32,531 nt of DNA from assembly GCA_016208805.1 (NCBI GenBank), contig JACQXL010000073.1, forward strand, positions 1 through 32,531, read 5' to 3'. Under the pieces are notes generated by a model, which saw only the letters and a program-made list of their open reading frames with translations, searched no databases and was not told the origin of the DNA. Position numbers and translations under genes: made by a program. Every line of letters begins with the position of its first letter. Within the stretch, counting starts at the first letter, position 1. The DNA is from Planctomycetota bacterium. GTDB taxonomy: Bacteria > Planctomycetota > MHYJ01 > JACQXL01. Shown one piece after another: positions 2,401 through 32,531 of the stretch.

Positions 2401-2416
2401 TTTAAGGAGATAGTGG

Positions 2417-4923: not shown

Positions 4924-4941
4924 CAGCGTCTAACATAATGA

Positions 4942-4997: not shown

Positions 4998-5045
4998 ATT
5001 ATACTGGATTATCGGTGTGCATCATAAGACAGTGGAAAACAGGAT

Positions 5046-5414
5046 ATGGCCTTTGAACACAAAGAAATAATCCACGAAATACTCAATGCGTCGTTTGAGG
5101 TTCATAATACTTTAGGATGCGGATTTTTAGAAAAGGTTTACGGAAAAGCCCTCTTATATGAACTGAGGCGAAGAGGGTTAAAAGTAGAAGCACAAAAGGA
5201 GATAAAGGTTTATTACAAGAAAGTTGAGGTGGGTAATTATATCGCAGATATGATCGTTGATGGGAAGGTAATAATAGAATTGAAAACTGTTGAAGAAGTG
5301 GTTAAAATCCACGAAGCCCAATTATTAAACTACTTGAAGGCAAGCGGCTATAAAGTAGGACTTATTTTAAACTTCGCTAAGACGAAATTAGAATACAAAA
5401 GATTAGTGATGTAA
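5046..5414 (+). CDS. GxxExxY family protein (PD-(D/E)xK nuclease-like fold family)
   Basis: 122-aa ORF. The signature GCGFLEKVY matches the G-x-x-E-x-x-Y motif. Family-typical blocks are EVHNTLGCGFLEKVYGKALLYELRRRGL and ADMIVDGKVIIELKTVEEV..HEAQLLNYLKASGYKVGLILNF. Confidence 0.9.
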   Translation: MAFEHKEIIHEILNASFEVHNTLGCGFLEKVYGKALLYELRRRGLKVEAQKEIKVYYKKVEVGNYIADMIVDGKVIIELKTVEEVVKIHEAQLLNYLKASGYKVGLILNFAKTKLEYKRLVM

Positions 5415-5478
5415 AAGATGAACGCAGATAAAAATCCGTGTTTATCTGTGTGTATCTGTGGTTACAAGGAGGTTAGTT

Positions 5479-9758: not shown

Positions 9759-9905
9759 AGGTTTCGGGGACATCCCTACGAGTTAGGGGGAACTCCCCCC
9801 GAGTTAGGGGGAACTCCCCCCGAGTCAGGGGGAACTCCCCCCGAGTTAGGGGGAACTCCCCCCGAGTCAGGAGGGCTTCCCTATGAGTTATAGGGACTTC
9901 CTTCT
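9759..9905. repeat. 21-bp tandem repeat array (GAGTYAGGGGGAACTCCCCCC) with degenerate flanking units
   Basis: Core units at 9780-9800, 9801-9821, 9822-9842 and 9843-9863 are identical except for one T/C position. Degenerate units lie at 9759-9779, 9864-9884 and 9885-9905. Each unit has two mutually exclusive hairpin options, GGGGG-AACT-CCCCC or GAGTT-AGGGGG-AACTC. There are no spacers, so it is not a CRISPR array. Confidence 0.9.
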
Positions 9906-9967
9906 ATTTCCGGATAAATACGGATGTAATCCGTGAAATCCGTGGCTGGGACTCCAGAAAAATCCGT

Positions 9968-10003
9968 GTTACGAAAAGGTAACAAATGTTACGATATCGT
10001 AAC
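9968..10003. promoter_or_regulatory. Paired palindromic sites: GTTAC-N6-GTAAC and a perfect 16-bp palindrome GTTACGATATCGTAAC (candidate operator/UAS)
   Basis: GTTACGAAAAGGTAAC at 9968-9983 and GTTACGATATCGTAAC at 9988-10003. The centre lies about 140 bp upstream of the -24 element at 10138. Confidence 0.4.
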
Positions 10004-10136
10004 AGAACCACCTGTAAACGGATTAAACGGATTGAGCGGATAAGATTTATTTACCACCGGGAAAACCCTGTAAAATCTGCTAAATCCGTTAAATCCGCTT
10101 ACTAAAGCGAAAAAATCCGTGTAATCCGTGGCTGGC

Positions 10137-10152
10137 TGGCACGGGTTTTGCA
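10137..10152 (+). promoter_or_regulatory. Sigma-54 (RpoN) -24/-12 promoter element
   Basis: TGGCACG-GGTT-TTGCA matches the consensus TGGCACG-N4-TTGCW exactly (GG 10138-10139, GC 10150-10151, GG-N10-GC spacing). It sits 13 nt upstream of the giant-ORF ATG (10165). Confidence 0.6.
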
Positions 10153-10164
10153 TATATGTAGTTC

Positions 10165-13100
10165 ATGAGAAATGAGCCACAGATTAAGTTAGGTGGCTGG
10201 CGAGCCGTTAAGTTCATCGGGCTTGCGGCCGGTATCGTCTTTATTGCCTTCCTGCTTGCCTATACGGCCAGCCAGAACTGGCATTTCGTTGACCCGGCCA
10301 CGGACTATGTGCTTGATTCAACCACGGACACCATTTCCGGATTGCCCAATATAGAACTGGTCACCCCCTCTTCCATAGCCCGGCTGACTCTGCATCCGGG
10401 CCGGACCTATACGGCCGAGACCAAGAGCGGCGGGGACTATAACTTTGATAGCGGTCTATACGGGTCATATCTAACTGCAACCGTCCCGGAGAAGGTTGTC
10501 CGGCTGGCTAACTCCGCTAACGGTGGCTACGGCAACTTTGACCCGGCGGCCGGGCTGGCCAGCGGGTCGTTCCTGTCCCGGATATTTGACTCCACCGTAG
10601 CCGGCTCAAACTGGACCAATATCGGCTGGACGGATAAGCGGTCTGAGACGGCTGAGGCATCGGCGGCCCTGACCGCGACTATTTCCGCCCTCTATCGTTT
10701 CAACACGGCACCGGGCATTATAGCCGATTCCGGCACTTATGCCAATACGTTGGCTAACAGCGGCGCGGCGCTCAGCGGGGTCCAGCCGAATGACGCCAAC
10801 GGCGAGGGGTTGTATAACCAGTCTGGCTATTTTAACGGCGCCAGTTATCTTTCAAGGGCAGACGCCGGCTCAACAAATCTTAACTTCGGACAGGATAGTT
10901 TTTCAATGGAATGCTGGGTCAAGACCAGTATGACCGGCAAAGGTCCGATAATAAATAAACGGGCCGCCGTAATTACAGGCACCCTGGGATGGGAAATCGG
11001 GTTGAACTATGATGACACACCGGCAAATGCCGGCAAGCCCTATTTAGCCATTATCTTGCAGGACTATGACGTTGAATTGTCACAGGCGGCCAATTTCCCC
11101 CAGTATCTTTCGGCCGGCAGGCCGGTTAACGATAACCAGTGGCACCATATCGCGGCCTATCGCCAGATAGACCAGATAGCGATATATGTGGACGGTATCT
11201 TTCAAGGCAAGTCAGGGCTGGATAACCCGGCCGCTAACGTAAATAATGCCGCCACAATGTATATCGGCTGGGCGACTGAAACTTATGAAGGAACAACAAC
11301 GAATTACTATTATACCGGTAAACTGGACGAATTAATCCTCTATAAAGGCAGGGTGTTGACAGAATCAGAGATTTTCAGTCGTTATGAACGGGGTTTAGGC
11401 GTGAAATTCAGGGTCAGGGCGAGCGATACGGCCACATCCGGCTGGACGGATGCGGTGCCGGCCTGGTCAGGCGAGATTATCAATTCATCTACAACGCCAT
11501 CAAGCGTAACCACGGTCAGCGGCCGGTATTTCCAGTATCAGGCGGTATTAGAAAGCCGCAACCGCGGCGCCACGCCGATGCTGACCCAGGTGGCAGTTTC
11601 CGGCCCGGCCAGTCCGGCCGATAAGACTGATGACGGCTCACAATCGGTAGAGTTTGACCCGGAGCAGATATATACGAATCCGTGGGGGACGAGCAGACGT
11701 ACGATGACGGTCTATCGGACGGACTATATAAGTGTAAAGCCGAGGACGGACCTAACCGCGGCCCGGGCCGGCACGGAAGATGGCATCACGGCTTTGTGGC
11801 GGTTGGAAGGCAATACTACTGATTTAGCCGGAGGTGATAATCCGGCCATTCTTATGAATAGCCCGGTCTACAGCACGACCGTAGTGGCGCTCAGTCCGTC
11901 CAACACTAATTCTATCCAGTTGGATGGGGTGAATCAGTATCTGACCGCGGCGCATAGCGCCAATATCGCCTTTAAGTATGACCATACACTAGAGGCCTGG
12001 ATATATCCGACTGTTGCCCTTGATGCCTCGGGCTTGCCTTCTCAACTGGCGCCGGCAATGACTATTTTGGACAAAGGCGGCTATAAGGTATGGTGGGATA
12101 ACAAATCGGGCAAGATGCTCTATGAACTGCAGGATGTGACGGCAAAGGGGGTATGGCAGAAGGATAATCTGTTTAAGAATGCTACGGCCAATTTCCAGTC
12201 CGCCACGCCGTATTTTTCAGAGTTGATACAGTGTATGGCGGTCTATCGGGGTAAACTATATGTTGGGGTATCAGGCAATTTTGTTGCGACGACTACTACT
12301 AATGGTGAGGCAAGAATTTATGTCTATGACGGCAAGACATGGGAATTAGCATATGACCCAGTTCCATTAGGTGCATTATTAGACTATGAACGAGTGCTAT
12401 GTATGACAGTTGCTTATGATAGACTATACTGCGGATTAGGGATTACTATTGATGATGGTGACCTTGCCATATTTGATGGCACAAATTGGACTATGAATTA
12501 TGGACTTGATGCTGCAGATTACGAAGGTGTTTATTCGCTGGGTACCTGGAAGGACGGCGGGACAGAGTATCTCTATGCGGGAGTAGGGTATAGCGGTAAC
12601 GATGCTGATGTATATTATATTAACAGCGCCGGCACCTGGACACAGGTTGCAAATAACTTGGGCAATGATGATGCCGTAACAAGTTTGTATGTATTTAAGA
12701 ATAAACTCTATATCGGGACAGGACTTGATAGAGATGAGGCAATTGTCTATCGTTATGATACGCCGCCTACTGTAGCGACTGCACCGGTCACGGTTTATAA
12801 CCCGTCTGCCACCGAGGCGTTAGAGAATGTGCAGTGTATGACCGAATATAATGGTAAGATATATGTGGGGTTTGACGGCAATGCGGCCGGCGATGCGGAC
12901 TACGCAGTCTCTGACTCGGGCGATTCCGGCACCTGGACGCTCTATAAATATAACCAGATTGGCGGGGTCGGCACGTTTGAGGGTATCTATACGATGTTCA
13001 CCTATGACGGCAAGTTATATGCCGGGTTAGGCACATCAGCCGGTGATTGCCAACTCTGGTATACGACAGATGGAACCGGTTGGACGCGCGATGATGACCT

Positions 13101-16100
13101 GTATGGGATTGCCGGCGGATACCGGACCATCAAGAGTCAGGCCGAATATATGGGCAGATTATATTTAGGGTTCGGCAGCGCCCTCTATAACGCAACCACT
13201 TCTATTGCTATCACGGCCGGCGAACCATATGACCTATTCTATCTCCAGAGCAAGGGTTATATCGCTTCTACGATGAATTCGTTCAACGTCAATACCTGGT
13301 ATCATATTCAGGCGGCCTATGACCGCTCTGTTAACAGAAAGATGTATTTGCGGATTTCCGACACGGGCGGACTGATAGAAGAAAACACGGTTCGGGCAAA
13401 TATGATATTAAATGCGTCGTCCGTGCCGTTGTATATCGGCGCCGACCGGCAATACGGCAGGTATTTCAGGGGGTTAATAGACGAGGTCGGGCTGTTTAAT
13501 ACGGCCTATATCGGCGCTCATCAGGGGCCGGCCTATTACGAATCGGGCGAGATTGCCGCGCCCAATAACGGTTATGTCAGATGGAATAATATCGCCTGGG
13601 GCGAGCAGGAACGATATGGTGATGAACTGACGGCTGAATCAGGTGTGGAGATGGCCGGTCTCTGGCACCTGAATAATAACACCATAGACGAGTTCGGTAG
13701 CACGACCGACCCGGCAAATACCCTGCTTGATTTTACTGCCGGGGCCAAGTTCGGGGGTTATGCGGGTTGGTTTAACGGGACAAATAATAAGATAGCCGTG
13801 TGGGATGGCGCGGCGTATAACTGGACATCAGCCGGGCTGACCGTAGAGGCGTGGGTCAAGAACAGCACGATGTTGCCGCAGTCAATCGTGGCCAAGGGCG
13901 CCGGCACGACATTAGAATTCCGGCTCTATATAGAAAACGATTACCGGCCGGCCTTCTGGGTATCAAGTGGTGGCTCAGGTAAATCACCACTTGCCTACGG
14001 GCCTGTTGCCCGAACAGTTACGGATAATAGGTGGCATCATATTGTCGGGGTCTATGACGGCACATCGGTTAAGGTCTTTGTGGACGGTGAGTCGGGAGGT
14101 TCCGTTAGTTATAGCGGCACGGTCTATAACGGCGCTGATGCGGTATGGATTGGCTCCGACCAGGAAGGTGAGTGGTATTATACCGGCGTGATAGACGAGG
14201 TGGCCATATATCGGAGGCCGTTACAATCTGCCGAGGTTCTATCCAGATACCAGAAGGGCGTTACTTCTCTTAAGTTGAGGGTAAGTGTACGGGACGGGGG
14301 CGGTTACGGCTCGTGGGTCGGGCCGAACGATACGGACAGCGATTTTAAGATAGGCCAGAGTGAAGTAATCAGCGGGACTACAGGGCTGGTCGGGCGGGCT
14401 ATCAAATACCGGGCTGAGTTCACCACAGCCAACCCCCTCTACCCGGCTCGGTTTGACTTACTTAAACTCGCCCACCAGCCATATTATTCCAACCAGTCGC
14501 CCTGGGTAAGTAATTCCAGCGGCTGGGGTTATACCGGATTGGCCGGTTTCTTTGAGACACGGGGAAGCGGCTCGGCAACAGTAGATAATGTCAGATACCA
14601 AATCTCGCATCCGGCTAATCCGGCCGAGTGGTGGTGGTATAATGCCGGCTGGCAAATCGCTACTTCATCGGTAATGTCTTCCACCTGGCAGACCATCAAT
14701 GATAATATTTATACCTTTGACCCTGATGGCGCGCCTCAAAGCGGTAATTTCTATTTCAAGGCATTCCTGGTTTCTAACGGTATAGAATATGTGGCGTTGG
14801 ACGAGGTCAAGGTGGCAGACCAGTCGGTTACGGTTACCTATCCGAACGGCGGCGAGCAATGGGCATTAGGCGAACAACGGCAGTTCCAGTGGAGCAAGAA
14901 AGGGGCGGTGACTGCGGTTAAGATAGAACTGGCCAGAAACGGGCTGGGTGGTTCGTGGGAAGTGATTACCGATACGGTAGATGCCGCGGCTGGGGTCTAT
15001 ACATGGACCGTCACCTCGCCGGTTTCCACGACCTGTTATGCCCGGATAACATCCCTGCAGGATGCCAGCGTCTGGGACACCTCAAATGCTCAATTTGAGA
15101 TAAAAGAGGTTTCGGGCAAGAGCATAACAATCGGTTCGCCCAGCGCCGGAGATAATTGGATAGCCGAAGACCCGCATTCAATTACATGGACGACATTAGG
15201 CGGGGTGGGCAATGTTACCATCCAGTATTCCAAGAGCGGTAATTTTGATGACACTAAAACACTGGTAACCGGCATACCAAATACTACCACAATTTATAAC
15301 TGGACGCCGGTATCTTCGGATATTTCATCGGCGGCCGGCGGTAAGATAAGAATAATGGAAGACGATGGCTCGCCTACTACCGATTCAAACGCTTTCTTTG
15401 TCAAGGCCGGTTTTAATATCACCGTTCCGAATACTTATCCTATTTCCTGGGTGGTGGGTACAAACCAGACGATTCAGTGGTTCACCAAGGGCGATTCCGG
15501 CGATGTCAAGTTGGAATATTCCAGAGATGACTTCAATAGTGATATTAATATAATTACGCCGGCTATTTCCAATTCGCCCGGCGCGGGCAGTTATGTCTGG
15601 ACGCCGATTCCGATTACCACGACCTTAGGCGCGGCGTATAATGTCAAGGTCAGGATTAAAACGCTTGACGCAACCAAACCGCCCGCAGAAGATAAGTCTG
15701 ATAACGGTTTCAAGATATGCGGCAGTATCACGGTGGGACAGCCCAATGGCGGCGAGACGCTTTATGTCAACGATATGGGTAATGTCATTACCTGGACCAA
15801 GGTCGGCAATATCGTCAACTACCAGATAAGGTATTCAACAAACGGCGGGACGTCCTGGCCTTATAATATCGTGGCATCCACCGGCGGTACAGATTTAGGC
15901 GGTGGGGTGCGCGGGTTTACCTGGGAGCCCATCCCGGATACCATCTCTCCTGACTGCCGGGTAAAGATTACCGATGCGGACGACGGCCCGTTCTATGAGG
16001 TGCTGGATACCTCTAATGCTAATTTCACTATAAAGGGTAAGTTAGCGCTAACTACTCATCCGGGTCAGGCATCGGGTCAGGAATTCGTGATAGATTCAAC

Positions 16101-19100
16101 CACGCCCATCTCGTGGAATACGGTTGGGACAATACCGAATGTGAATGTTTGGTATATAGATGACTTCGGTTCAGTTAAAATCACCGGTCCGATATCCAAT
16201 ACCGGTGGAATTCTCTGGACAATCACGGACGACCTCAATCCCGACCCTAATAGTAATGTAAGGGTCTGGGTGGAGAATGCGGACGATACAACAGTCAAGT
16301 CACAATCACTCAATGCCTTCAAAATAAAGGGTGAGATTACGGTGGGTAAACCGGTGGGCGGCGATACCTATCTGGCTTATCACTCGTCTTATCAAACCAC
16401 GACATATTCCATAACTTGGACAGTTACCGGTTCAATCCCGTTTGTCAGGTTAGAGTATTCTACGACCGGCGAATTCGGGGCATATTCTACCGTAGCGCCG
16501 CCGGCGCCGGTAATCATTGCCTGTGGTGCGACCGGGACATATAATTATACCTGGCAGGTGCCATCTGTCCTCTCCGTGGCCTGCCGGGTCAAGGTGTCTG
16601 ATAGTGCCGATACAGCGGTCTATGGACTTTCTCAGCCAACAGACTTCACCGTAAAGGGCAAATTAGAGGTTACCGCTCCGATAAGTAGCGACATCTGGGC
16701 GGTGGGTGATACTGATAAGATTATTAAATTTAAGGTTACCGGCAACATCGGCGATGCCAGGATAGAGTATCTGGATAATACCAGTACCTGGCAGCCAATT
16801 ACCACAAGTTTCCCCGCTACGGCCGGCATAGAAAATTCGTATCAATGGTCAAGCGGGGTGGCGGACGTAATCACAACTACTGCCAGAATCAGAGTGAGGC
16901 CGGTGATTGCTGAGCGGGCTGACCCGTCGGAATCACCGCTCTTTACCATAAAGACTAATATTAATGTATACAAACCGGCGCTTAATGACTCGGTCTATGT
17001 CTATCATCCGACCTATCAGCCGACTAAATACCCGATTACATACACATATACCGGCACGGTTACCAATGTCAAATTCCAGTATTCAGCCAACGGCGATGCC
17101 GGTCCGTGGACGGATATCGGGACGGGCTTTACTAACGGCGATGGCACCGGGCAATATAACTGGGAGGTGCCGAATGTGATTACTTCCACCGCTAAGGTAA
17201 AGGTACTGGATAATGATGCCAACCATCCGGCGGCCGAGGGCAAATCCCAGCAATTCCTGATTAAAGGTAGACTGATTGTGGCTTATCCGTCCGCGGGCGA
17301 TGCGGTAACGTATCAGGATAATATTGCCATTAGTTGGACCGCGGTCGGGTCTTTTACGCCGGTTAAAATAGAGTATTATGACGGCACCAGTTGGGTTACG
17401 CCGGAGATTACTTCCAGCGCGGCCAGTGTTTCAGGGACAAATAACTCATATCCTTGGAATATACCGGATAAGGATTCTGATACCTGCAAGATAAGGGTTT
17501 CATCAACCGACTGGCAAAATATCTCTGCGGAAGGCGGCGTATTCCGGATAAAGGGTAAGGTGCAGGTAACCACGCCGGCCGGCGGTGAAGTATATGTGAT
17601 AGGCCAGAACCCGGTTATCAGTGGCACGAAATCAACCTCGGTAAGCGCAATTAAGTTAGAGTATTATAATGACGGTTCGGTTTCTCCAGGCTGGGAGACA
17701 GTAGTAACGAGTTATGCCGTAGCGCCATTGACCACCTGGAGTTACAGCGGCTGGACCGTACCGGATAAGATAAGCGCCGACCCGTTCAGCCCGGCCGCCA
17801 AGATAAGGATAACTGATGTGACCGTGGCAGGTTATTCGGATGTGACTTCTACCAGCAATAGTTTTAAGGTAATAGGCAGTTTCACCATTACCTATCCAGA
17901 TGCAGTCGCAACCTGGGGTGTAGGGGAACCAAGACCTATTACATGGACGACCAACGGTTCAATCAGTAAGGTCAATATCCAGTGGAGCATTAATGGTGTT
18001 ACCTGGACTAACTTTGTGACTAATTACGACAATAACGGCAACGGCACCACCGCTATCGGCATTACCGTGCCCGATGCCATCACCAACACTTTCAGGGTAC
18101 GTGTTGCTGCCAATACGGATAGCACGGTCTATAAGGACTCGCCTAATTTTGTGGTCAAAGGCAGATTCCTGATGACCCAGCCGATTTCTACAACCAAGTG
18201 GTTGGTAAATAATCAGGAGGATATTAAGTGGGATGTCTGGGGAACAATCAGTAAGGTAAATATATATTACTGGAATCAAACTATCCCTGACTGGGTTAGT
18301 ATTACAACTAACGCCCCGGCCACCAATACAGTCACTACAGGACAATACCTCTGGACCATCCCGAACCTTATCAGAGATGACATTAAGGTGAAGGTGGAGA
18401 ATGTAGATGACACTTCGGTGGTAAGAGAATCGGACCCGTTTAAGATAAGAGGAAAAGTGCATATAGATGTTCCTAATGGCGGGCAGGTGTATTATGTCTA
18501 TGACACGGTTGACCAGCCGACCAAGAGCCCGATACAATTCACGATAACCGGTTCAATAACCACTGCGCTTAATTTAGAATATTCTATCGATGACGCTGTC
18601 TGGAATCCGATAGCAACCACAACCGTAGCCAGCGCCGGAGTATATACTTATCAGTGGGAAGTGCCTGGCACAGTACCAACAAATATTTGCAAGACCGTTA
18701 AGGTCAGGATAGTAGATACGGCGGTTGAGGGTGAAATAGACCCTTCTGATGCCAATTTTGAGATAAGGGGCAAGATATTTGTAACCGGTCCGATTACCAC
18801 CACGGTCTGGGCAGTAGGCGAGATTGGAAACAGCATCGTCTGGACCTCCGTAGGTAACATCGGCAGTGTAACCCTGCAGTATCTCAAAGACATCACCTGG
18901 ACGAATATAACCACGGTTGCCAGTAATGACGGTACGAACAATTACCTCTGGTCGGCCGGGGTAGCGAATGCCATATCCAGTGCGGCGAAGATACGGGTCG
19001 TGCCTGACCCGGCATTTGACCGTGCCAGCCCGGCCGAATCGCCCGCATTCAGTATCAAAAGCACGATCACGGTGGGTAGCCCGATGGCCAATGCGGTCCT

Positions 19101-22100
19101 GCTGGTAGATAGTACCACTCCGATAACCTGGACATATACCGGGACAGTAAGCAAGGTGAATATAGAGTTCAATATCAATGAGGAGGTCACCTGGACGGCG
19201 GTTGCCACAGCCGATACCGCGGGCAATGGGACCGGTAGTTATGACTGGAAAGTGCCCAATGCCATCTCAACCAATGTCAATATCCGGATATCGGATGCGG
19301 ATGCGGGACATCCGGCTGGGACAGTAGAAGGCCCGACCTTCAATATCAAGGGCAAATTGACTGTGGGCGCACCTATCTCAACCAGCGAGTGGACCACGGG
19401 AGAGTCCAGGGCTATTACCTGGACCGCTAATGGTGGACCGTTTAATATCAAGTTGGAGCTGTCTACCGATGACGGTCTCAGCTGGGAAGCAACACCGATA
19501 GTTGCATCATACGGAAGCGTCAGCGGGACCAACACCTATACCTGGAACCCGGTCTGGGACCGGGTATCATCCAAATGCAGGATAAGAATCTCACCCACTC
19601 AAACGTGGCAGAGTATCTCTGATGTAAGCCCGCAGTTTAAGATAAAGGGTCTGCTAACAGTAACCGCGCCATCAATGGCCGGTCAATCCGGATACCTGAC
19701 AATCGGACAGAACCCGAGCATAACGGGTACCAAGTCCACAGCGGTAACCAGCATCAAGATAGAATACTACAATGATAGCGCGATACCGGGCTGGGAAACA
19801 CTTATAGCAAGTCATGGGGTCGGGGTAGGCACGACCTGGAGTTATGGCTTGTGGACCGTGCCGGACAAGATAAGCGCCGACCCGTTAAGCCCGGCTGCCA
19901 AGATAAGGGTAACCGATGTTACTGATGCCGGTATCACTTGTTCTTCTGAAAGCGGCACATTCAAGGTGTGTGGTAGTTTCACGGTAACCTATCCGCCGGC
20001 ACTGACCGTCTGGTTGGTAGGCGAATCAAGACCGATTACCTGGACGACCAACGGTTCCATCAATAATGTCAATGTCCAGTGGAGCAAGGACGGCGGTTCT
20101 AACTGGACGACCTTTAGCAACGGCACTAATGTTTCTAATAACGGCAACGGCACCACGGCACTGACTATTACCGTGCCTGATGCGATAGCCAACACCTTCA
20201 AGGTCAGGGTGGTGGCCTCCGGTGACAGTACTGTTTGGGCATCATCACCTAATATAGAGGTCAAGGGCCGGCTCCAGATAACCGCGCCGATAGCGACAAC
20301 CATCTGGCGCGTGGGTAATCAGGAATATATCACCTGGGATGTCTGGGGAACAATCAGTAAGGTAAATATATATTACTGGAACCAGACTATCCCTGACTGG
20401 GTTAGTATCACGACTAATGCCCCGGCCACCAACACGCCGACCACGGGACAATACCTCTGGACCATCCCGAACCTTATCAGAGATGACTTTAAGGTGAAGG
20501 TGGAGAATGTAGATGACAGTTCGGTGGTAAGAGAATCGGACCCGTTTAAGATACGGGGTAAGGTTCAGGTCAATAACCCCAACGGCGCAGAGGTCTATTA
20601 TGTCTATGACTCGGTAGACCAAACTACCAAATACCCGATCACCTACACCGTTACCGGCGCTATCAGCCAGGTAAAGATAGAGTATTTACAAAGCGGGATA
20701 ACCTGGACCTTGATTAGCACAACTAATGCAACCGGGCTCTGGATGTGGGAGGTGCCGGGTGCTGCGGCGGATATCTGCAAGGCCGTCCGGGTGCGGGTTA
20801 CAGACAATATTAACTCCGATACGGCTGATGACTCCAATGCCGATTTTGAGATAAGGGGCAAGATATTTGTAACCGGTCCGATTACCACCACGGTCTGGGC
20901 AGTAGGCGAGATTGGAAACAGCATCGTCTGGACCTCCGTAGGTAACATCGGCAGTGTAACCCTGCAATACCTCAAAGCAGGGAGTTGGTATGATATCACA
21001 ACGGTTGCCAGTAATGATGGTATTAATAGTTATCTCTGGGTAGCCCCGGGAGTGGCAGATGCTATCTCAACCGCGGCTAAGGTCAGGGTCAAACCGGATG
21101 AGACATTTGACCGGGCTAATATTGCCGAATCACCGGCATTCACTATCAAGACGACCATAACAATAGGCAAACCAACTGCAGGCGAATCGCTCTTTGTGGA
21201 TAACACCTACACCATCACCTGGACATATACCGGCACGGTTAGTCAGGTAAAGATAGAATACAATAAAAATGATGAGGTAACCTGGACGCAGGTGGCATTG
21301 GTTACAGCCAGTCAGAAGTTCTATGACTGGCAGGTACCGGATGCGATATCGGATAATGTCAATATCAGGATATCAGACAATGATGCCGGTCATCCACCTG
21401 CCACAGTAGAGAGCGGGCAATTCTATATTAAGGGGCAGGTAACTGTTGGCGCGCCTGCATTCGGGGCTGAATGGACTTATAATGAATCAAGGAATATTAC
21501 ATGGACCGCAAACGGCGGACCGTTTGATGTCAGGATAGAATTATCCACCAATAACGGCGGCAGTTGGGAGGCCACACCCATTGTTGCCTCATACGGCAGC
21601 GTCAGCGGCACCAATACTTATCCCTGGAACCCGGTCTGGGACAGGGTCTCAGCACAGTGCAAGGTAAGAGTCAAGTCAACTGGTGACTTGCAGAATATCT
21701 CTGATGAGTCAGAGGTATTCAAGATAAAGGGTCAATTGCAGATTGGGTATCCGGCAGGCGGAGAGGTGTTCGTGGTCAATAGCAGCCCGACGATTACCGG
21801 GACTAAATCAACCGCGGTGCGATATATCAAGATAGAGTGTGATTATGATGACACGGCGCCGGGCGACTGGGTAACGCTGGCAGCCAGTTATGATGTCGGA
21901 GCAGGCACGACCTGGAGTTATGGTGGCTGGACAGTGCTTGACCGGATTAGCGCCAATCCGCTGGGCCCGGCTGCCAGGATACGGGTTACCGATGTGACCG
22001 ATGCCAGCATCACCAATGTCATTGCAACAAGTAATAACTTTAAGGTCATCGGAGGATTCACAGTAACCTATCCGACTGCAGGCACGACCTGGCTGGTGGG

Positions 22101-25100
22101 CGAATCTCGTCCGATAACCTGGACGACCAATGGAGCTATTAATGCGGTTAATGTTCAGTGGAGCAAGGACGGCGGTTCTAACTGGACGACCTTCAGCAAC
22201 GGCGCTAATGTGCCCAATAACGGCAACGGCACGACCGCGCTGACCATCACCGTGCCGGATGCCATCACCAATACCTTTAAGGTCAGGGTGGTGGCATTCA
22301 GCGATGACACGGTCTGGGCCGCCTCGCCTAATATTGAGGTCAAAGGCCGGCTCCAGATAACCCAGCCCATAAGCACGACCAAGTGGCTGGTGGATAACCA
22401 GGAAGAGATTAAATGGGATGTTTACGGGTCAGTATCAAGTGTCAATATAGATTATCGGACGGGTCTGTTACAACCTTGGGTTTCTATAACCACGACCGCG
22501 CCGGCGACTTATACATCCGGGGCAGGGCGTTATGGCTGGACGATACCTAATGTTATCGGTGATACTCTGCAGGTCAGGGTAGTCCAGAGTAATGACAGCG
22601 CCGTAGAAAGTATCTCAGCCCAGTACCTTAAGATAAGAGGTAAGGTACAGATAAATAATCCTAACAATGGTACCGAGGTATATTATCCTTATGATGCGGT
22701 TTACCAGACCACCAAATACCCGATAACCTACACTGTTACCGGTTCAGTATCACAGGTGAGATTGGAATACTGTCCGGATGGGGTAGCCGGGCCCTGGACC
22801 CAGATAACGCTGGTTGATACACCGGTTTCCGGGACCTCCACCTATCTGTGGGAGGTGCCCGGGGCATTAACCGATATCAAAAAGACGGTGAGAGTCCAGA
22901 TAGTGGATACGACGGCCGATGGAGAATCGGACTATTCCGATGCCAACTTTGAGATAAGGGGTAGAGTGACGGTAACCAGTCCGGATGCCAGCGCAACCTG
23001 GGCGGTCGGAGAGACCGGTCGGACGATTAACTGGGATGGCGTGGGCAATATCGGTAATGTTACATTAGAGTATCTAAAAGGCGTCAGTTGGTATTCTATA
23101 GCCACGGTAGCCAGTTCCAATGGGCCGAATAGTTATCTCTGGAATGCCGGGACGCCACCTTATGTAGCGGATGCGATATCAACGGCCGCCAAGATACGGA
23201 TAGTTCCGGACCCTGCATTTGGCCGTGCCATTACTGACGATTCAGACCCGTTTACTATCAAATCAACATTAATGCTCGGTAAACCCACGGCCGGTGAATC
23301 GCTTTATGTGGATAATAGTTATACTATTACCTGGACCTATACGGGCACGGTTACAAATGTCAAGTTGGAATACAACATCAATGACGAGGTAACCTGGACT
23401 AATATAGCAACGGTATCGGCTGGTGCGGTAGGGCAGGGTTCATATGACTGGACCGTGCCCAATGCCATTTCAAGCAATGTCAATCTCAGGATATCAGATG
23501 CGGATGCGGGTCATCCGGCTGCCACTGTTGAGGGGGTCCAGTTCTTTATCAAGGGGCAGATAACGATTGGTTCGCCGGCGCTGGATGCGGAATGGACCAA
23601 GGGCGAATCACGGGCCATCACCTGGACGGCCAATGGCGGTCCATTCCCGGTCAAGATAGAGTTATCCACCAATAACGGCGGCAGTTGGGAGGCCACACCT
23701 ATTCTGGGGGCATATACCAGTGTCAGCGGGACAAATAGTTGGACCTGGAATCCGGTCTGGGATAGGGTTTCGTCACAGTGTAAGATTAAGATATCATCTA
23801 CTGATGGGTGGCAAAATATATCAGGATTAAGTAACTCATTTAAGATAAAGGGCACGGTGACTGTCGGGTATCCGGCCGGTGGCGAGACATTTGTGGTTAA
23901 TAACAATCCGACGATAACCGGTACCAAATCAGGCGCGGTGACTGCCTTTAAAATAGAGGTTGATTATGACGACACGGCGCCGGGCGACTGGGTAACGTTA
24001 GCGGCCAGTTATGCGGTGGTCTCGGGCTCTGCGACCTGGAGTTATGGCGGCTGGACCGTGCTGGACAGAATCAGCGCCAATCCGTTAAGCCCGGCCGCCA
24101 GGATACGGGTTACCGATGTGACCGATGCCAGTATTACCAATATTATTGCGATAAGTAATAATTTTAAGGTAAAGGGTGCCATAAGTGTGTCATCGCCGGC
24201 TTTCCCGGATGAGTGGTTGGTTGGCTCAAGCCAGACCATCACTTGGAGCGCTACTGGTTCAGTTAGCCCGGTTAATATTTATTACTCAACAGATGATTTT
24301 GCCACTATAACTAAGACGATAGCCACGAATGTTTTGGCTGGTTCTGGGACAAGGATTTATACCTGGCCAGCAGTGGCAGACAATATTACCTCTGGTTATA
24401 CGGTGAAGGTAAAGGTCTGTGCTTCCAATGACCAGGATGATGTAAAAGGCGTAAGCAGTATCTTTAAGATAAAAGGTGCGATAGAAGTACGGGAGCCATC
24501 CAATCCTGGGATAGAATTAGAGGTCGGCAGTGCCTATACGATTACCTGGAGAACCACCGGCCAGCCCAAGAATGTCAGGATAGTATATTATACTGATATT
24601 ATACCGGAAACTGAAATAGTTGCCTCAACTCCGGCTACATATGTTCCGATTGCGGGTGTTACTTATGAGGGCAGATATCCTAATTGGGTCGTTCCGCCCG
24701 CTGTTTCCAAGCAGGCCAGGATAAAGATATATGATAAAGATGATAACACCGTCTATGATATATCCGATAATGTCTTCAGGATAAAAGCCAAGATAACCGT
24801 TACCAGCCCGAATACAGGTAACGAAGTCGGTATAGTCGGAGCCGACCCAGGATTATCCATCTCGTGGGCAATCACAGGTACTGCGACCAATGTTAAACTG
24901 GAGTATACGGTTAATAATGGTTTAACATGGACTAATATTGCCACCGTAGACGCAGGCGCCACGCCTTATAACTGGGTTATACCGGATGTGACTGGAATTA
25001 TTTCTAATAACTGCCGTGTTCGGGTGACCGATGCCGATGCCGGCGAAACTGATATATTGGATATTTCGGACAACCTTTTCAGGATAAGAGGTAAACTTAA

Positions 25101-28100
25101 TCTTGATACGCCTAATGTGGCCGCAGATTTTGAGGTGGGCGATACAGTGGTATTCCAGTGGACCGCCACCGGACCGATTGCGCAGGTTAATATCCTCTAT
25201 TCAACCGATGACTTTGCAACCGTCACCAAGACATTATTCAGCGGACTGGCATCAGGTTCAGGGACAAAGACCCAGAACTGGACAATACCAAATGATTTTG
25301 CCGACCTAACTACTTCAAGAATCATCAGATTCAAAGTGGTAGATTCGTCAGATAGCGCGGTTTATGACAATTCTGATGCGATGTTCAAGATAAAGGGTAA
25401 ATTCCAGGTAATTGACCCGAATTCCAGCAACCTGACCTGGCTGGTGGGCGAATTAAGAACCATCACTTGGACTACCACCGGCAAGATTGCGTCCGTGAAT
25501 GTGCAGTACAGCAAGGACGGCACCACAAACTGGACGACCTTCAGTAATGGTAGTGGCGTGCCTGACAATGCGGCTGGTAGCGGTTTAGGAACCACGGCGC
25601 TAATCGTTACCGTGCCAGATGCGATAAGTCCAACCTTCCGGGTGCGGGTGGTTAATCAGGTAGACACCGCAGTTGCCGACCCTTGCGATTATGATATCAG
25701 GATAAGAGGCCGGTTACAGATATATGACCCGATTGCCACGACCAAGTGGCTTGTAAGTAATCAGGAATTTATTAGATGGAATGTCTATGGCTCTATTCCT
25801 ACGGTAAATATTGAATACCAGGATGCCCTTGTGCCGGGTTGGATTCCGATAACCACCTCAGCACCGGCCACAAACACCCCGACCACCGGACAATACCTGT
25901 GGGCAATTCCTAACTTTATCAAAGATTCTGTCCAGGTCAGGGTGGTGCAGAGTGACGATGCGGCAGTATTTAGCGAGTCAGCCCAGTTTAAGATAAGAGG
26001 TAAAGTCAGGATAGATACGCCAAACGGCGGAGAAACATATTATCCGTATGACGCAGTTTATCAGACGACTAAATACCCAATAACCTACACGGTTACCGGT
26101 TCGGTATCACAGGTAAGACTGGAATATTGTCCGGATGGCGTGGCAGGTCCGTGGACGGTCATAGCGCTGATTAATCCGCCTTCCGCAGGTACTTATACTT
26201 ATATGTGGGAGGTGCCGGGGGCTTTGAATGATATAAAGGAAACCGTGCGAGTTCAGATAGTGGATACTATGGCTAACGGAGAATCTGATTACTCGGACAA
26301 TCCATTTAAGATTAAGGGTATAATGCAGGTTAGTGAACCACCTGATGCAGACGGTGTTTGGGAGGTTGGTCAATCAGGCACAATTCTGTGGAGTGTGGTT
26401 GGAGCAGTGGGTGATGTAACCTTGCAGTATCTCCAACCGGCTGATGGATTCTGGTATGATATTGCAAGCGTTTCAACCACATCGGGCGCCAATAGTTATG
26501 TCTGGGGTAGTGTGGCGGATGCGATAACCTCAACCGCGCGGGTGCGGGTAAAACCAGTGATTTCAACTAAGGCGGATATCGCCGTTTCTAACCCATTTAA
26601 GATTAAAGGACGCGTTTTAGTAACCGCTCCGACTCTTGGATATGTGGCTAAGGTGGGCGAGAGTTGCCCGATTTCCTGGGTGATTTCCGGGACGATGAAT
26701 ACGGTTACTCTTCAGTATAAAGTCGGGATAGATGCCTGGCAAGATATAACTACTGTGCCCGCCGGACTACTCGGCGGAACATATAACGGCTGGACTACAC
26801 CGGATAGGATTTCAACCAATGTCCGGGTTAGGGTCTTTGATACCTCTGTGCCGGAGGCATTTGACGACTCCGACCAGTTTGAGATACGCGGCAAACTTCA
26901 TCTGGATTATCCGTCTGATAGCGGGCTACCGGACTGGGTAATATTCGGAACTTACCCCATCACCTGGACGGCTTATGGCACTATTAATCAGGTAGAATTA
27001 AGATATGACCTTAATAATGGCAATGGACCGGACGGTAATCCGGATACGGGGGATGAATATCTAAATGTAATTACTACAACCGCTTCAGGCGCGCTAACGC
27101 ATGACTATTACTGGACTGTGCCGGATATTGCATCGGCTAATACCCGTATCAGGGTCGTGGATGTAACTAATTCTGCCGTGAAAGACGAAAGCGATTACCC
27201 GTTTAGAATCGCTGGTACTATTACTGTAGAATACCCGGGCACTGGCAATGTCTTTACCGTAGGCGACCCTATCGTGATTACCGGCACCAAAAGCAGCGGT
27301 GTTACTCAGGCGGATATCCAATACTGGAATGGCAACTTGAGTCAATATGTATCTGTGGCAATATCCGCTTCTATCGGAACCGGTTTGACCTGGTCGTATA
27401 ACTGGATTGCGCCTGACTGCCTCATGGGCGACCTACGTATCAAGGCAATATTCTCCGAAGATACAACCATCTTTGACATCGGCGACCAGTTCCGCGTCAA
27501 AGGTAACCTTACCCTCGGTCGGCCAAACGGCAACGAAGTCTTCACGGTCGGCACAACCGAACCGATTACCTGGACAATGATGGGCTCTATAATCAATGTC
27601 AATCTCTATTATTCACTGGATAATTTCGTTTCGTCGTCTAGGACCATCGCGACCGACCTTAGCGCCGTGGCCGGTTCATACAACTGGCCGGTGCCCGATG
27701 ATATTACCGCCGGCTACAGCGTTAAAATTAGAATAACGGACTCTGCTTATGAAATAGGCACCTATGACGACAGTAATAATCCATTTAAGATAAGGGGCAA
27801 AACCGAGGTTCAACCGATTACATGGACGGTTACCGGCTCAATCCAGAAAGTAAGACTAACATATACCTATGGTGAACCGGATGGCCGGACAACTGAGATA
27901 GAAATCACTCCCGACACGGCGGGAACAACTACAGGCAATACCGGCGTATACCTCTGGACCGTTCCGAACCTGATTACATCAAAAGCCAGAATCAAGGTTT
28001 ATGATAAAAACGATAATAATACCTGGGATGAAAGCGATAATACCTTTAAGACCAGAGGCAATATCACGGTTGGTTCGCCCAACGGCAACGAGGCTTGGTT

Positions 28101-31100
28101 GGTTGGCGTGGAATATCCGATTACCTGGACCACAGTAGGACCGATTGCCAATGTGGGCATTCAGGTATCCATAGACCCGGCGCATTCTACATGGGAAACA
28201 CTGGTTACTTCTACTGCTGCCGCGGCTGGTGTCTATACATGGACAGTATTAGACCGTATCTCGGCTACCGCACAAATCCGCGTCCTTGATGCCGCCGATG
28301 CAACCGTCAGGGATGATTCTAATAACGACTTCAGGATTAGGGGTCGGTTCAATGTCGTCTATCCTAATGGCGGTCAGATATTTGTAGTCGGCCAGACTAA
28401 TGTTCCGATTACCTGGACTTCCACCGGCACGATGGATACCGTCAAGATAGAGTATTCCAGGGATGACTTTAATAGCGATATTAATACCATTATTGCCTCA
28501 ACCGAGAATGATGGCAGTTACCCCTGGCCGGTTATTCCTGACGCGATTGTGTCAACCATGGCTGTAAAAATCAGGGTTTCTTCTACCACTGACTACGGCG
28601 CACGAGACGACTCCGACAGCGGATTCAAGATAAGGGGCGATTTAAACGTCCTTGTCCCAAATAACCCGGGTATTGTCTGGACTGTAGGTGAACAGAGAGT
28701 TATCCAGTGGAGCAAGACCGGCTCCATCAGCCAGGTGGAACTAAGATATTCCGATGATAATTTTGGGACTTATAACTCCATAAGTATTACTAATGCCGCG
28801 GCACTCTCTTATACCTGGACCGTGCCGGATGCGATAGGCGTAACCCCCAAGATGAAGATTCGGATTCTGGATGTTGCGGACAGCACGGTCTATGACGACT
28901 CTGATAACGCCTTTAAGATAAAAGGCAATATTACTATCGGTTCGCCTAAGATAAACGATATATTCACGGTCTATCACGCCAGTTATTACCCGACCACGCA
29001 TCCGATTACCTGGACACTAACCGGCACTATAAATAATGTCAAGATAGACTATTCTAAAGATAATTTTGCCACCAGTTGGCCGGTTGTTGCTTCTACTTCT
29101 GGTCCGGCCGGTCTATATAATTGGCCGGTGCCCGATGACATATCGTCAACCGTGCGTATCAGAATATACGATGCGGCTGATTCAACGGTCTATGTTGACT
29201 CGGATACTTTCTATATAAAGGGTAAGTTGTTTGTTACCGCGCCTCTGGCCGGTAATGCTTGGAAGGTCGGCTCTTCGCAGAATATCCAGTGGAACACCAC
29301 GGGTACTATTGCCAGCGTTAAACTTGATTACTTATCGCCGGCAGTGAACGATTGGATTAACATTACACCATCAACTACTAATACCGGTATCTTCGGCTGG
29401 TTGATACCGAATGATATTACCTATAGTAATAATGTTATTGTTCGCGTAATCAATCTATCAGACCCTAATGTTTATACCGATTCCGGTGGCTTTAAGATAA
29501 GAGGCGATTTTATAGTTGCCCAGCCCAACAGCGGTGCAGAAATATGGGAGGTCGCGACCAACCAGGTTATATCCTGGACCACCACCGGCACAATCAATAA
29601 CATAGACCTGCTCTATTCAACCGATAACTTCGGCCCGAATACCTGGACCATCTTCACCAATACGCTCAATAGCAGCCCTTACAACTGGGCTGTGCCTGAT
29701 AATGTTTCAAATAGCGTCCGGGTCAGGGTGCGCGATACCAATGACCCGAATCTGGTCTATGACGATTCCAATAACGACTTTTCTATTGTCGCCCGGATGC
29801 AGGTAACCAAGCCGTCAGCCGGTGAGAAATGGCAGGTGGGTGAAAAATACAGCGTAAAGTGGAAATGTTGGGGAACCGTGCCGAATGTCAAGATTGATTA
29901 TTCTGTTGCGCCGCCGTTCACGGTCTGGAAACCGGTCATCGCGTCATATGTTAACAACGCCAGCAATGACGGGCTGGTAGAAGGTTCATATGAATGGACT
30001 ATACCTGATGATATTTCAGAAACGGTTATTGTCCGTGTGGCGGATACCCGTTATCCATCACTGGTCTATGCCGATTCAGGACAATTCAAGATTAAGGGCG
30101 CTGTCAGAATCACCGCTCCGGTTCTTGATGATGTCTTCTATGTCTATCATCCGACCGCGAACCCGAATCCACATAATATTGTCTTCAGCGTAACCGGCAC
30201 AGGAGTTGGCGCGGTTAAGATACAATATTCCAAAGACAACTTCGCCACCACGCCGACCCTTATCGCAACTATGGCAACGGTTCAGGGTGTTAATACTTAT
30301 CAGTGGCAGGTGGACGATGCGATTGGCATAAATGTCAAAATCAGGGTAGAAAAGGAAACCGACTCCGAGACCATGGTTGATTCTGAATTCTTCATGATTA
30401 AGGGTAAATACACAGTAACCGCTCCGGGACCAGGCGCCTATATCGTCGGCTCTACCACTGCTATCCAGTGGATATCCTCCAGTACCATTTTTAATGTCAA
30501 GTTAGAATACTGGTCGCAGTCGGCCGGGAATTATGTGGTTATCCCCGGTGCCGGCAATATCCCGAACACCGGCTCATATTCCTGGCAGATACCCGACGAC
30601 ATCACCGCGGTTAACAATGTCAAGGTCAAGGTTTCTAATGCCGCTGACTCTTCAAGTTATGACGAAAGCGATGTTTCCTTTAAGATACGCGGCGATTTTG
30701 CCGTCCTGTTCCCTAATGCCGTCATAGACACCCTCCGGGTCGGCGAGGCCACGCCGGTCTCCTGGACCACCACCGGCAACATTCAGTATGTCAAGCTGGA
30801 ATATTCCACTGATGGTGGAACTACCTGGATTGACCCGCCCATAGAATCCAACCTCTTCCCTAACCCAAATACATATATTTGGACTGTGCCGGATGCCATT
30901 ACGACTACCGCCCGCTTCAGGGTGGCTGATGTGGCTGACCCAACCGTCTATGATATCTCTAACAATAACTTCAGGATTATGGGCAAGATTACGGTTAATC
31001 AACCTTCAGGTTCTGGTATTGTCTGGGTGGTCGGCACGAGCCAGAAGATTCGCTGGACCACCACCGCAACTATACCACGGGTTAAAATAGAATGGTCTGA

Positions 31101-31197: not shown

Positions 31198-31214
31198 GTA
31201 TGACTGGACCATCC
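31147..31214 (+). repeat. Exact 34-nt tandem duplication that breaks the giant ORF (+1 shift)
   Basis: CCGGCCGGCGTCTATGAGTATGACTGGACCATCC occurs at 31147-31180 and again at 31181-31214. The downstream domain continues perfectly in the +1 frame. Confidence 0.95.
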
Positions 31215-31663
31215 CGATGGCAATGCTCAGACCCCATTCCAACTGGAAGGTCAGGATTTCGGATATCAGATATCCGTATCCGGCGGTATATGATGATTCT
31301 AATAACGGCTTCAAACTCCGGGGTGATTTCGCCTGGCTCAATCCAGTCGGTAACGAAATATGGGCTGTCGGCGACCCCAGAACCATCTCCTGGACCACCA
31401 CCGGTCCAATCAATAACGTCAAGCTCCAATATACCAGAGACAACTGGGGTAGCGTTCGTAACATCCTGACCAATGCAGATACCAATGATACGATGGCAAA
31501 TGACGGATATTATAACTGGTCTGTGCCTGACTTCATCACCACGGATATCAGGGTAACGTTAAAGATTACCGATGCCAATGACCCGACGGTCTATAAACTT
31601 ACTCCGATAATCTCACCAAACACCGGGACACTCAAGATTCGCGGTACACGGATATCAGGGTAA
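31181..31663 (+). CDS. Continuation of the giant protein (frame 2 segment between the two duplications)
   Basis: PAGVYEYDWTIPMAMLRPHSNWKVRISD...DFAWLNPVGNEIWAVGDPRTISWTTTGPINNVKLQY... keeps the same Ig-like grammar. It ends at a TAA created by the 107-nt duplication. Confidence 0.8.
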   Translation, partial: PAGVYEYDWTIPMAMLRPHSNWKVRISDIRYPYPAVYDDSNNGFKLRGDFAWLNPVGNEIWAVGDPRTISWTTTGPINNVKLQYTRDNWGSVRNILTNADTNDTMANDGYYNWSVPDFITTDIRVTLKITDANDPTVYKLTPIISPNTGTLKIRGTRISG

Positions 31664-31754
31664 CGTTAAAGATTACCGATGCCAATGACCCGACGGTCTA
31701 TAAACTTACTCCGATAATCTCACCAAACACCGGGACACTCAAGATTCGCGGTAC
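31541..31754 (+). repeat. Exact 107-nt tandem duplication causing a second frame break (+2 shift)
   Basis: 31541-31647 is identical to 31648-31754 (ACGGATATCAGGGTAACG...AAGATTCGCGGTAC). Together with the 34-nt duplication it returns translation to the original frame. Confidence 0.95.
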
Positions 31755-32531
31755 GCTCTCAGTTAGTGAGCCGGCGGCCGGACGCATCTGGCTGTATAAC
31801 ACCAGCCAGAATATCCTCTGGAATTCATTAGGTTCTATCAGTGCTGTCAAGCTGGACTATTCTAAAGATAATGGAACAACCTGGGTTACCCCGCCTATTG
31901 AAGCAGCCCGGGCAAATAATAATGGTCCTAATTCCTATTCCTGGCTTGTGCCTGATACGATTGTGCCTGATTTCAGATGTCTGATTCGTCTTACCGATGT
32001 GAGTGATTCTACTATATCCGCCACCTCTGGTGCATTCAAGATTCGTGGAGATATCTCCGCGGTCTTCCCAACTACCCCTGACCTTACTCTCTATGTGGGT
32101 GAATCCAGGACCATTACCTGGACAACATCAGGCACGATTCCTTTCGTTAAGATAGAGTATTCTATGAATGACGGGTCAAGCTGGGTTACGCCTCCTATCG
32201 CCGAGTCAACCAGTAATACTAATTCCTATCCCTGGACCGTGCCGGATGCGATTACTAATACGGTCAAGATTCGTGTGGCTGATGCAGCCGACCTTTCGGT
32301 CAATGGTGTCTCTATGAGTTTTAAGATTATGGGCAGGGTGCTGGTCAACCAGCCGTCGGATATCGGTCTTGCCTGGGTTGTCGGCACGACCCAGAAGATT
32401 CGCTGGACCACCACCGCAACTATACCACGGGTTAAAATAGAATGGTCTGAAACCGACTTCTCCACGGTTTATTCCAGCACAGAGGTAGATTGTGGTCCGG
32501 CCGGCGTCTATGAGTATGACTGGACCATCCC
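31648..32531 (+). CDS. Continuation of the giant protein (frame 1), open at the window end
   Basis: Hand translation gives TDIRVTLKITDANDPTVYKL...KIRGTLSVSEPAAGRIWLYNTSQNILW...KIRGDISAVFPTTPDLTLYVGESRTITW...KIMGRVLVNQPSDIGLAWVVGTTQKIRWTTTATIPRVKIEWSETDF...YEYDWTIP with no stop. Confidence 0.8.
32391..32531 (+). repeat. 141-nt exact copy of 31041-31181, terminating the window
   Basis: Base-for-base identity at an offset of 1350 nt. The identity starts after a single G/C mismatch at 31040/32390 and runs to the last base of the window. Confidence 0.95.

Follow-up and report, generated by a model that had tools for sequence, protein, structure and literature searches.

The DNA analysed here is contig JACQXL010000073.1 (assembly GCA_016208805.1) of a Planctomycetota bacterium, a stretch of 32,531 nt that we refer to as the window. 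It carries one open reading frame (ORF) for a giant protein in which tandem immunoglobulin (Ig)-like domains form a long array and, upstream of it, a conserved set of genes that includes a secretin (Table 1); scans with Rfam and for tRNAs returned no RNA family and no tRNA on either strand of the window. An earlier note on this DNA had described within the giant gene a higher-order repeat of seven Ig-like domains, and our analysis confirms that an ordered block of seven different Ig-like domains is repeated there.

Table 1. Features of the window, with coordinates in nt. D, Ig-like domain, numbered along the array; a-g and w-z, domain subtypes, followed by the number of the copy; L008 and L010, contigs that carry the orthologue; TPR, tetratricopeptide repeat.
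Feature	Coordinates	Strand	Remarks
LexA-like repressor	176-907	-	HTH_3 and Peptidase_S24; conserved synteny
Conserved upstream gene set	1329-9678	+	
AAA_22 ATPase	1329-2261	+	
263-aa protein	2417-3208	+	
Secretin	3202-4923	+	Secretin and Secretin_N domains
GxxExxY / PDDEXK_3 gene	5046-5414	+	between the secretin and the coiled-coil/TPR gene
Coiled-coil/TPR protein, 1406 aa	5458-9678	+	SMC-like coiled-coil matches, C-terminal TPRs
Giant ORF	10165-31197	+	7010 aa: hydrophobic signal/anchor, 3 LamG (Laminin_G_3) matches, propeller-like repeats, 55 Ig-like domains
D01-D05	14824-16332	+	unique Ig-like domains, not a-g; one-to-one orthologues in L008, 58-80% identity
Copy 1, a1-g1, D06-D12	16333-18453	+	edge copy; identity to later copies 36-47% for a-d, 63-87% for e-g
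Near-identical tract	18229-18504	+	matches 20335-20610; crosses the g|a boundary, from the latter half of g1/g2 into a2/a3
Copy 2, a2-g2, D13-D19	18454-20559	+	
Putative gene-conversion tract b2/b3	18755-18878	+	124-nt exact match to 20843-20966, first half of b; preceding a domain ~46-50%
Copy 3, a3-g3, D20-D26	20560-22641	+	
Copy 4, a4-e4, D27-D31	22642-24177	+	
w-x-y-z block, D32-D35	24178-25398	+	four domains between e4 and f4
f4-g4, D36-D37	25399-26001	+	
a5-b5, D38-D39	26002-26610	+	a5 79% identical to a4; b5 diverged (46%), with a one-to-one orthologue in L010 (74%)
D40-D43	26611-27798	+	possible relics of c5, d5, e5, w5; D42 weakly e-like, D43 weakly w-like
D44-D54	27799-30984	+	unique Ig-like domains; one-to-one orthologues in L010, 59-86%
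D55-D59	30985-32531	+	second higher-order repeat, period four domains (~1.2 kb); D59 88% identical to D55
34-nt duplication, second copy	31181-31214	+	perfect tandem (31147-31215); shifts the frame and makes the stop at 31197
107-nt duplication, second copy	31647-31753	+	perfect tandem (31540-31753); restores the frame
Terminal 141 nt	32391-32531	+	identical to 31041-31181

The giant protein opens with a single basic and hydrophobic segment (MRNEPQIKLGGWRAVKFIGLAAGIVFIAFLLAYTA/SQ), which reads as a signal peptide or signal anchor, and a Pfam profile search placed three Laminin_G_3 (concanavalin-like) matches in it. Judging from the translation only, one LamG-like domain (~11980-13500; aa ~600-1115) is apparently split by about 350 aa of propeller-like repeats, in which the motif 'KLYVG...G...Y.YDG..W' occurs in six or seven copies. 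The array itself comprises 55 contiguous Ig-like domains of about 95-108 aa each (aa 1554-7008), which were delimited with a hidden Markov model (HMM) built iteratively from the giant protein itself and which, at a spacing of about 2 residues, stand without linkers. Minus-strand ORFs within the gene overlap this one continuous frame of 7,000 codons. Over aa 4160-7010 the array matched PF10342 (Kre9_KNH) with 43.6 bits against a gathering cut-off of 24.6 bits; taken singly, 14 of the 55 domains matched at E<=0.01 (best 7.4e-08), most being too divergent. One domain, D25, was modelled with AlphaFold2 (AF2) from an alignment of the 55 paralogous domains, giving a seven-strand beta sandwich at a predicted local distance difference test (pLDDT) score of 97.4, and a Foldseek search of this model against the PDB returned only generic Ig V-type domains at template modelling (TM) scores of 0.5-0.6. 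The array domains are thus predicted to have an Ig-like (Kre9_KNH-like) beta-sandwich fold. D44 (27799-28059) is a shortened Ig-like domain that lacks the first ~16 profile positions, and its orthologue is shortened in the same way (75% identity over 83 aa). Laminin_G, Kre9_KNH and weak Ig-type matches were the only ones that Pfam gave for the giant protein, with no SecA-DEAD, HEAT, dockerin or TSP3 domain among them, and the protein has a single N-terminal hydrophobic segment rather than multiple transmembrane regions. No Pfam match to an RTX or type I secretion system (T1SS) signal was found in the giant protein, of which the window lacks the C-terminus, or in the C-terminal 764 aa of its orthologue. 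We infer that the giant protein is an exported planctomycete surface protein with the Ig-like array as its central stalk.

Across D06-D31 and D36-D39 the domains fall into seven subtypes, a to g, which follow one another in this order in units of 2121, 2106 and 2082 nt. The boundaries in the earlier note coincide with those of our HMM: its unit starts at 16333 (D06), 18454 (D13), 20560 (D20) and 22642 (D27), as well as 24178 (D32), 25399 (D36) and 26002 (D38), are domain starts, and 26610 is the end of D39. The periodicity it described is evident on self-comparison at both levels. In the DNA, 12-mer matches lie mostly at offsets of 2079-2124 nt, with weaker sets at 4179-4203 and 6300 nt, and in the protein the mean identity within D06-D31 is 62.0% at a lag of seven domains, 53.8% at 14 and 43.3% at 21, as opposed to 26-31% at every other lag. 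Pairs of the same subtype are on average 55.7% identical and pairs of different subtypes 28.8%, a value for like pairs that none of 10,000 label permutations reached. A neighbour-joining (NJ) tree with 500 bootstraps likewise groups the domains by their position in the unit, with subtype clades at 87-100% support (a2-5 92%, b1-5 87%, c2-4 100%, d2-4 100%, e1-4 98%, f1-4 98% and g1-4 100%); the exception is a1, which falls outside the a clade and is assigned to a by its HMM margin and position only. In addition, subtype HMMs built from copies 2-4 plus a5 were applied to copy 1, on which they had not been trained, and returned a to g in order, with margins of 14.8, 37.2, 11.7, 25.0, 112, 72 and 132 bits; they call D39 as b (38 bits). 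Neither outcome that the earlier note had named as refuting its description, a dot-plot without the expected diagonals or a tree that does not group domains by unit position, was thus seen.

The edge copies have diverged. Domains a-d of copy 1 are barely above background in their identity to later copies (Table 1), and an assignment of D40-D43 to c5-d5-e5-w5 by the subtype HMMs and the tree has margins of just 3-6 bits, which are not significant. As an observation on the make-up of the unit, subtypes a and c are the closest pair of profiles (hhalign score 146 vs 50-100 for other pairs), and c1 holds an a-type 'Y.YH..YQ.TKYPIT' insertion (e.g. a at 16333-16659, c at 16957-17268), a hint that a and c go back to an older duplication within the unit.

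The copies are old, and they are mosaics. Synonymous substitutions per site (dS) between copies are mostly above 1 or saturated or not computable, and the ratio to nonsynonymous substitutions per site (dN/dS) is 0.06-0.47, mostly 0.1-0.3; hence the units are old, with purifying selection on each domain. Within one unit, sliding-window nucleotide identity ranges from 100% to 46%, with locally high values between copies 1 and 2 at the end of g (88-97%), copies 3 and 4 in e (80-89%) and copies 4 and 5 at the start of a (81-86%). The trees of the copies disagree between subtypes, pairing (1,2) and (3,4) for g and e, (2,3) for f and b, (3,4) for c and d, and (4,5) for a. Growth of the gene by duplication of whole cassettes, as put forward in the earlier note, is borne out in that the period-7 autocorrelation and the clades by unit position speak for in-register multi-domain duplication. 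To judge by the mosaic identity and the discordant trees, however, whole-cassette duplication alone cannot have yielded the pattern among the copies, and later short-tract gene conversion or partial-unit exchange is therefore needed.

Relatives of the gene help to place these events in time. No close relative of the unit was found in GTDB species genomes with one unit, the unit alignment or the secretin as queries. In a set of 5.8 billion proteins, the N-terminal 1553 aa gave only generic LamG matches (22-33% identity over <=27% of the query) and one unit gave only family-level matches (24-40%), P0020 among them. A metagenome scan with an alignment of four units, in turn, found an orthologue as two contigs of one metagenome, L008 (Ga0265292_1001159) and L010 (Ga0265292_1000197), the first of which is apparently JBBAAP010000019.1 (GCA_041658285.1, labelled Candidatus (Ca.) Brocadiia), with identical gene layout. 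The super-repeat unit is also present in further relatives, so that it is seen in L008, L010, L009, L023, P0153, P0165 and P0214. The orthologue, with the subtype strings '.....abcdEFGABCD' in L008 and 'dEWXYZFGAB...' in L010, has the architecture of the window, including the weak a-d of copy 1 and the four-domain block; L010 carries 42 domains in total, plus 764 aa without significant Pfam match. One-to-one orthologues exist for D01-D11, D32-D35 and D39-D54 (58-86% identity, mean 73%), and the unique domains among them have a dN of about 0.19 and a proportion of synonymous differences (pS) of 0.73, which is saturated. Domains g1 through e4, f4, g4 and a5 match the orthologue at the subtype level only and no particular copy of it. 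The core copies have lost one-to-one orthology with this relative, and the edge copies and unique domains have kept it. Within the window, dN is 0.09 for g1/g2 and f2/f3, 0.13 for b2/b3 and e3/e4 and 0.14 for a4/a5, most of them with a dS of 0.45-1.0, and 0.3-0.45 for other paralogue pairs; since dN is 0.09-0.14 in the former and about 0.19 between orthologues, some pairs are younger than the species split and others older. This is the classical picture of a tandem array, with an amplification older than the split from the nearest relative found, an interior that evolves in concert and edges that diverge.

The four domains between e4 and f4, which the earlier note took to be unrelated to the others, are indeed not of subtypes a-g, but they are members of the same domain family. 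Going by the window alone, D32-D35 are not classed as a-g in order and sit exactly at domain boundaries, so that one might think of a recent local insertion in which four foreign domains broke a regular (a-g)n array in this lineage. We consider this very unlikely, and a recent origin of the block is already contradicted by what the homologous sequences hold. In the orthologue L010 the same block again sits between e and f; its domains are 72-81% identical to those of the window, and synonymous sites are saturated. Counting L010, the order of the block is conserved in six homologues of the window's gene, which come from uncultured Planctomycetota and from metagenomes (L010, L023/P0020, L009, P0153, P0165 and P0214): L023/P0020 reads 'd e w x y z f g a b', and L009, 'w x y z F g A B C.. 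F g A', has a block collinear with that of L023 at 38-47%. With HMMs of w-z, the four domains were also picked up in their order, placed between e and f, in three proteins that had no part in the training: P0153 ('Fg.Bc..WXYZFGaBc..W'), P0165 ('F.abcdEWXYZF', a Planctomycetota metagenome-assembled genome (MAG)) and P0214 ('zFgABc..W'). The block is, moreover, part of an 11-domain period, as on self-comparison domains 1-8 of P0153 best match its domains 12-19, and pairs 13/24 and 14/25 of P0165 are 47% and 84% identical; in both sequences the repeating unit has 11 domains, a-e, w-z and f-g. The cycle of the family is thus a-b-c-d-e-(w-x-y-z)-f-g, with 7- and 11-domain versions coexisting. An origin of w-z as a duplicate of a contiguous a-g run, as in titin, was also considered, and profile-profile scores show no such pattern. 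The difference between the two versions is ancient and not local, and may go back either to an insertion into the 7-domain unit or to a deletion from the 11-domain unit. Of the insertion or unequal recombination by which the earlier note had explained the interrupted copy, recombination finds support in the visible gene-conversion tracts, whereas a local insertion of w-z does not, the homologues having the block at the same junction.

Repeats of this kind invite the question of whether a metagenome assembler made or mis-ordered the four super-repeat copies, all the more since the 3' end of this very contig shows probable artefacts. There, a 34-nt and a 107-nt tandem duplication (Table 1) first break and then restore the frame, because 34+107 = 141 nt = 47 codons, and with one copy of each removed the frame is open from 10165 to the end of the window (7408 aa), with D55-D59 as further domains. 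The giant gene is therefore incomplete in the window and has at least 59 Ig-like domains, and both duplications, with the stop at 31197, are probably assembly artefacts. The 141 nt repeated at the contig end can be read as marking a loop that a k=141 assembly graph left unresolved. This loop would lie at a second higher-order repeat, the period of which is 1350 - 141 = 1209 nt; domains 25-32 of the orthologue L010 have the same four-domain period (54-70% identity at lag 4). Such an origin of the four a-g copies is nevertheless scarcely credible. They differ at 20-50% of their nucleotides, and no exact repeat in the region exceeds 124 nt, which is less than the 141-nt repeat of the contig end and the k of 141 deduced from it. 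The frame is open throughout the array, and its two borders, as well as the e|w and z|f junctions, recur in relatives that were assembled independently. The repeat does explain why metagenome assemblies break here: the orthologue is split inside it, and the window's contig ends at a loop left unresolved, with a stop codon that is probably artefactual. Without long reads, the lengths and copy numbers annotated for such genes are not to be trusted.

The genes upstream of the giant ORF are of interest for its export. Their order, namely LexA-like repressor, AAA_22 ATPase, ~250-aa protein, secretin, ~1250-1400-aa coiled-coil/TPR protein and giant LamG protein, is common to two Planctomycetota MAG contigs (L021 and L022), both of them near parA/parB; the GxxExxY gene is absent from the corresponding position in L021 and L022. 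The best named homologues of the secretin come from Planctomycetota / Ca. Brocadiia (54-58% identity), with Omnitrophota next (~40%), and it scores below the NCBIfam cut-offs for PilQ, GspD and MshL; a sequence identical to this secretin is not on record. An origin of the window in Omnitrophota, to which the top match of one unit (P0018) had pointed, was rejected, as the secretin homologues and the synteny speak for MAGs of Planctomycetota / Ca. Brocadiia. Within the 10 kb of upstream sequence in the window, neither GspE/F nor pilin genes were found. The giant protein may, going by synteny only, be exported through the adjacent secretin. The gene of the 1406-aa protein has a very high AT skew (0.38-0.44) and near-exact internal repeats at an offset of 381 nt (6640-6756 / 7021-7137). 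In the 486-nt gap before the giant gene, 4.4 tandem copies of a 21-nt unit (CGAGTTAGGGGGAACTCCCCC) lie at 9779-9871, each unit holding a G5/C5 inverted repeat; the region before the orthologue (L022, 14500-16200) showed no comparable tandem repeat. Possible operator-like sites follow within 9900-10150, where AATCCGT/ACGGATT recurs many times and two TGTTACG-N5-6-(C)GTAACA palindromes lie at 9967-10004.

Domain repeats commonly expand by duplication of several domains at once in mid-array, possibly under selection against aggregation (PMC1553488). Multi-domain units lengthen the array yet keep neighbours dissimilar, which has been proposed to limit misfolding (PMC1553488) and would be a plausible selective reason for growth by such units. 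Here we propose that unequal homologous recombination amplified, as one block, an ancestral series of domains that had already diverged, and that, with only like subtypes similar enough in their DNA to recombine, gain, loss and conversion would all have proceeded in register, which would keep the order of subtypes automatically. The giant gene would then be composed of three 7-domain units, one 11-domain unit and a further unit in decay, and after the species split short gene-conversion tracts would have homogenised the interior copies while the edge copies drifted. The functional consequence would most likely be length: with each unit, a surface fibre on which the protein stands out from the cell would gain seven more folded domains. 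The low identity of neighbours (less than about 30%) is thought to protect tandem arrays from misfolding. An extender built by in-register cassette amplification is thus the reading that we regard as probable, its function being suggested by giant Ig-repeat surface proteins.

Several points weigh against it. Subtype residues are strongly conserved across species, especially in e ('I.GTKST ... TWSYGWTV ... IRVTDVTD') and d ('SVSGTN.Y.WN ... WQNIS'), which fits subtype-specific roles too, and the role as an extender is drawn by analogy with those surface proteins. Furthermore, the C-terminus of the giant gene lies outside the window, and the corresponding 764 aa of the orthologue have no significant Pfam match. 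The assignment to Planctomycetota is based on the labels of the best secretin matches and on synteny. The number of units in the orthologue, finally, is not fixed by its contigs, since the end of L008 and the start of L010 have exactly 127 nt in common where d meets e, which indicates a branch in a k=127 assembly graph.

The earlier note had seen in the fixed order of the seven domains a sign of a structural or functional periodicity of the fibre. Such an order would follow from homology-dependent in-register recombination and need not imply any periodicity of this kind: because different subtypes share only about 29% amino acid identity, recombination pairs like with like, and the order is kept without selection. 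It is conceivable, though unlikely, that the seven (or eleven) subtypes are non-interchangeable and the fibre has a structural repeat, be it a helical turn of a rod or, in the manner of nebulin and titin, a ruler or scaffold with docking partners at fixed spacing. The a-g (and w-z) order is kept in sequences as distant as about 40% identity, the motifs diagnostic of the subtypes are conserved across species, dN/dS is 0.1-0.3, 7- and 11-domain units both recur, and the 1406-aa coiled-coil/TPR protein is encoded directly upstream in conserved synteny, all of which would suit a periodic assembly. Retention of the order, though, is expected from in-register homologous recombination alone, and the core domains, at 55-74% identity between species, are no better conserved than the non-repeated ones (59-86%, mean 73%). 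Edge copies a1-d1 and b5-e5 have drifted to near background, and 7- and 11-domain units are mixed in one protein, which leaves no strict period and argues weakly against a ruler or scaffold. The extender, as the likely reading, is therefore favoured over the periodic ruler or scaffold. More improbable again, in our estimate, is that the 7- and 11-domain units are a structural code of a bacterial surface fibre, each subtype taking a defined position in a periodic assembly, e.g. along the 1406-aa protein or a cell-envelope lattice; if true, this would be a prokaryotic analogue of the ruler principle of titin and nebulin, exported through a dedicated secretin.

Giant bacterial Ig-repeat adhesins of the LapA, SiiE, MpIBP and BapA type have dozens of back-to-back Ig-like domains as an extender, with ligand-binding modules at one end. 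The giant protein resembles them as a very long, putatively exported protein that consists mostly of tandem Ig-like beta-sandwich domains and is presumed to act as an extender. In LapA/SiiE-type adhesins the repeats, of the BIg/Big family, are often near-identical, a C-terminal RTX/T1SS signal is present and T1SS genes are adjacent, whereas the domains described here are Kre9_KNH-like with neighbours about 29% identical, and the adjoining genes encode a secretin, an AAA_22 ATPase and a coiled-coil/TPR protein.

The super-repeats of titin are units of 7 and 11 domains. The giant gene shares with nebulin and titin a long array that consists of one fold throughout and is duplicated in blocks of several diverged domains. 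The autocorrelation likewise peaks at lag 7, duplications have occurred in mid-array and neighbours have low identity; with titin the gene also shares the coexistence of a 7-unit and a 7+4 = 11-unit. It differs from both in its bacterial host, the lack of introns and an unrelated domain family, and any match of its period to a partner lattice is hypothetical; unlike titin's extra four domains, w-z are no detectable copy of four a-g subtypes. The seven-module super-repeat of nebulin and the general rule of multi-domain duplication were set out by Bjorklund et al. 2006 (PMC1553488). As mid-array multi-domain duplication is already well known, nebulin's unit of seven included (PMC1553488), no new mechanism is involved here.

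Giant genes of Omnitrophota lie near type II secretion-like loci (10.1101/2023.11.21.568195, West-Roberts et al. 2023 preprint), and a 'tandem-repeat scaffold' class of giant proteins has been described (2026 preprint 10.64898/2026.06.07.730766). Like the Omnitrophota giants, the gene studied here has more than 7,000 codons, belongs to an uncultured bacterium and follows secretion genes that include a secretin; its repeats are old at the nucleotide level with the domain architecture preserved, and LamG/concanavalin-like domains are common in such proteins. Unlike them, its product has no multiple transmembrane regions and no SecA-DEAD, HEAT, dockerin or TSP3 domains, the locus before it is much smaller and, as far as the window reaches, has neither GspE/F nor pilin genes, and its nearest relatives are labelled Planctomycetota / Ca. 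Brocadiia.

The giant gene is a further case of multi-domain repeat expansion, in an uncharacterised family of giant planctomycetal proteins. As such, it offers a well-bounded bacterial example of how a giant repeat protein would grow, through an old cassette amplification of which the interior was homogenised and the edges decayed, and it points to two unit sizes, of 7 and 11 domains, that are common to a family of uncharacterised giant proteins in uncultured Planctomycetota.

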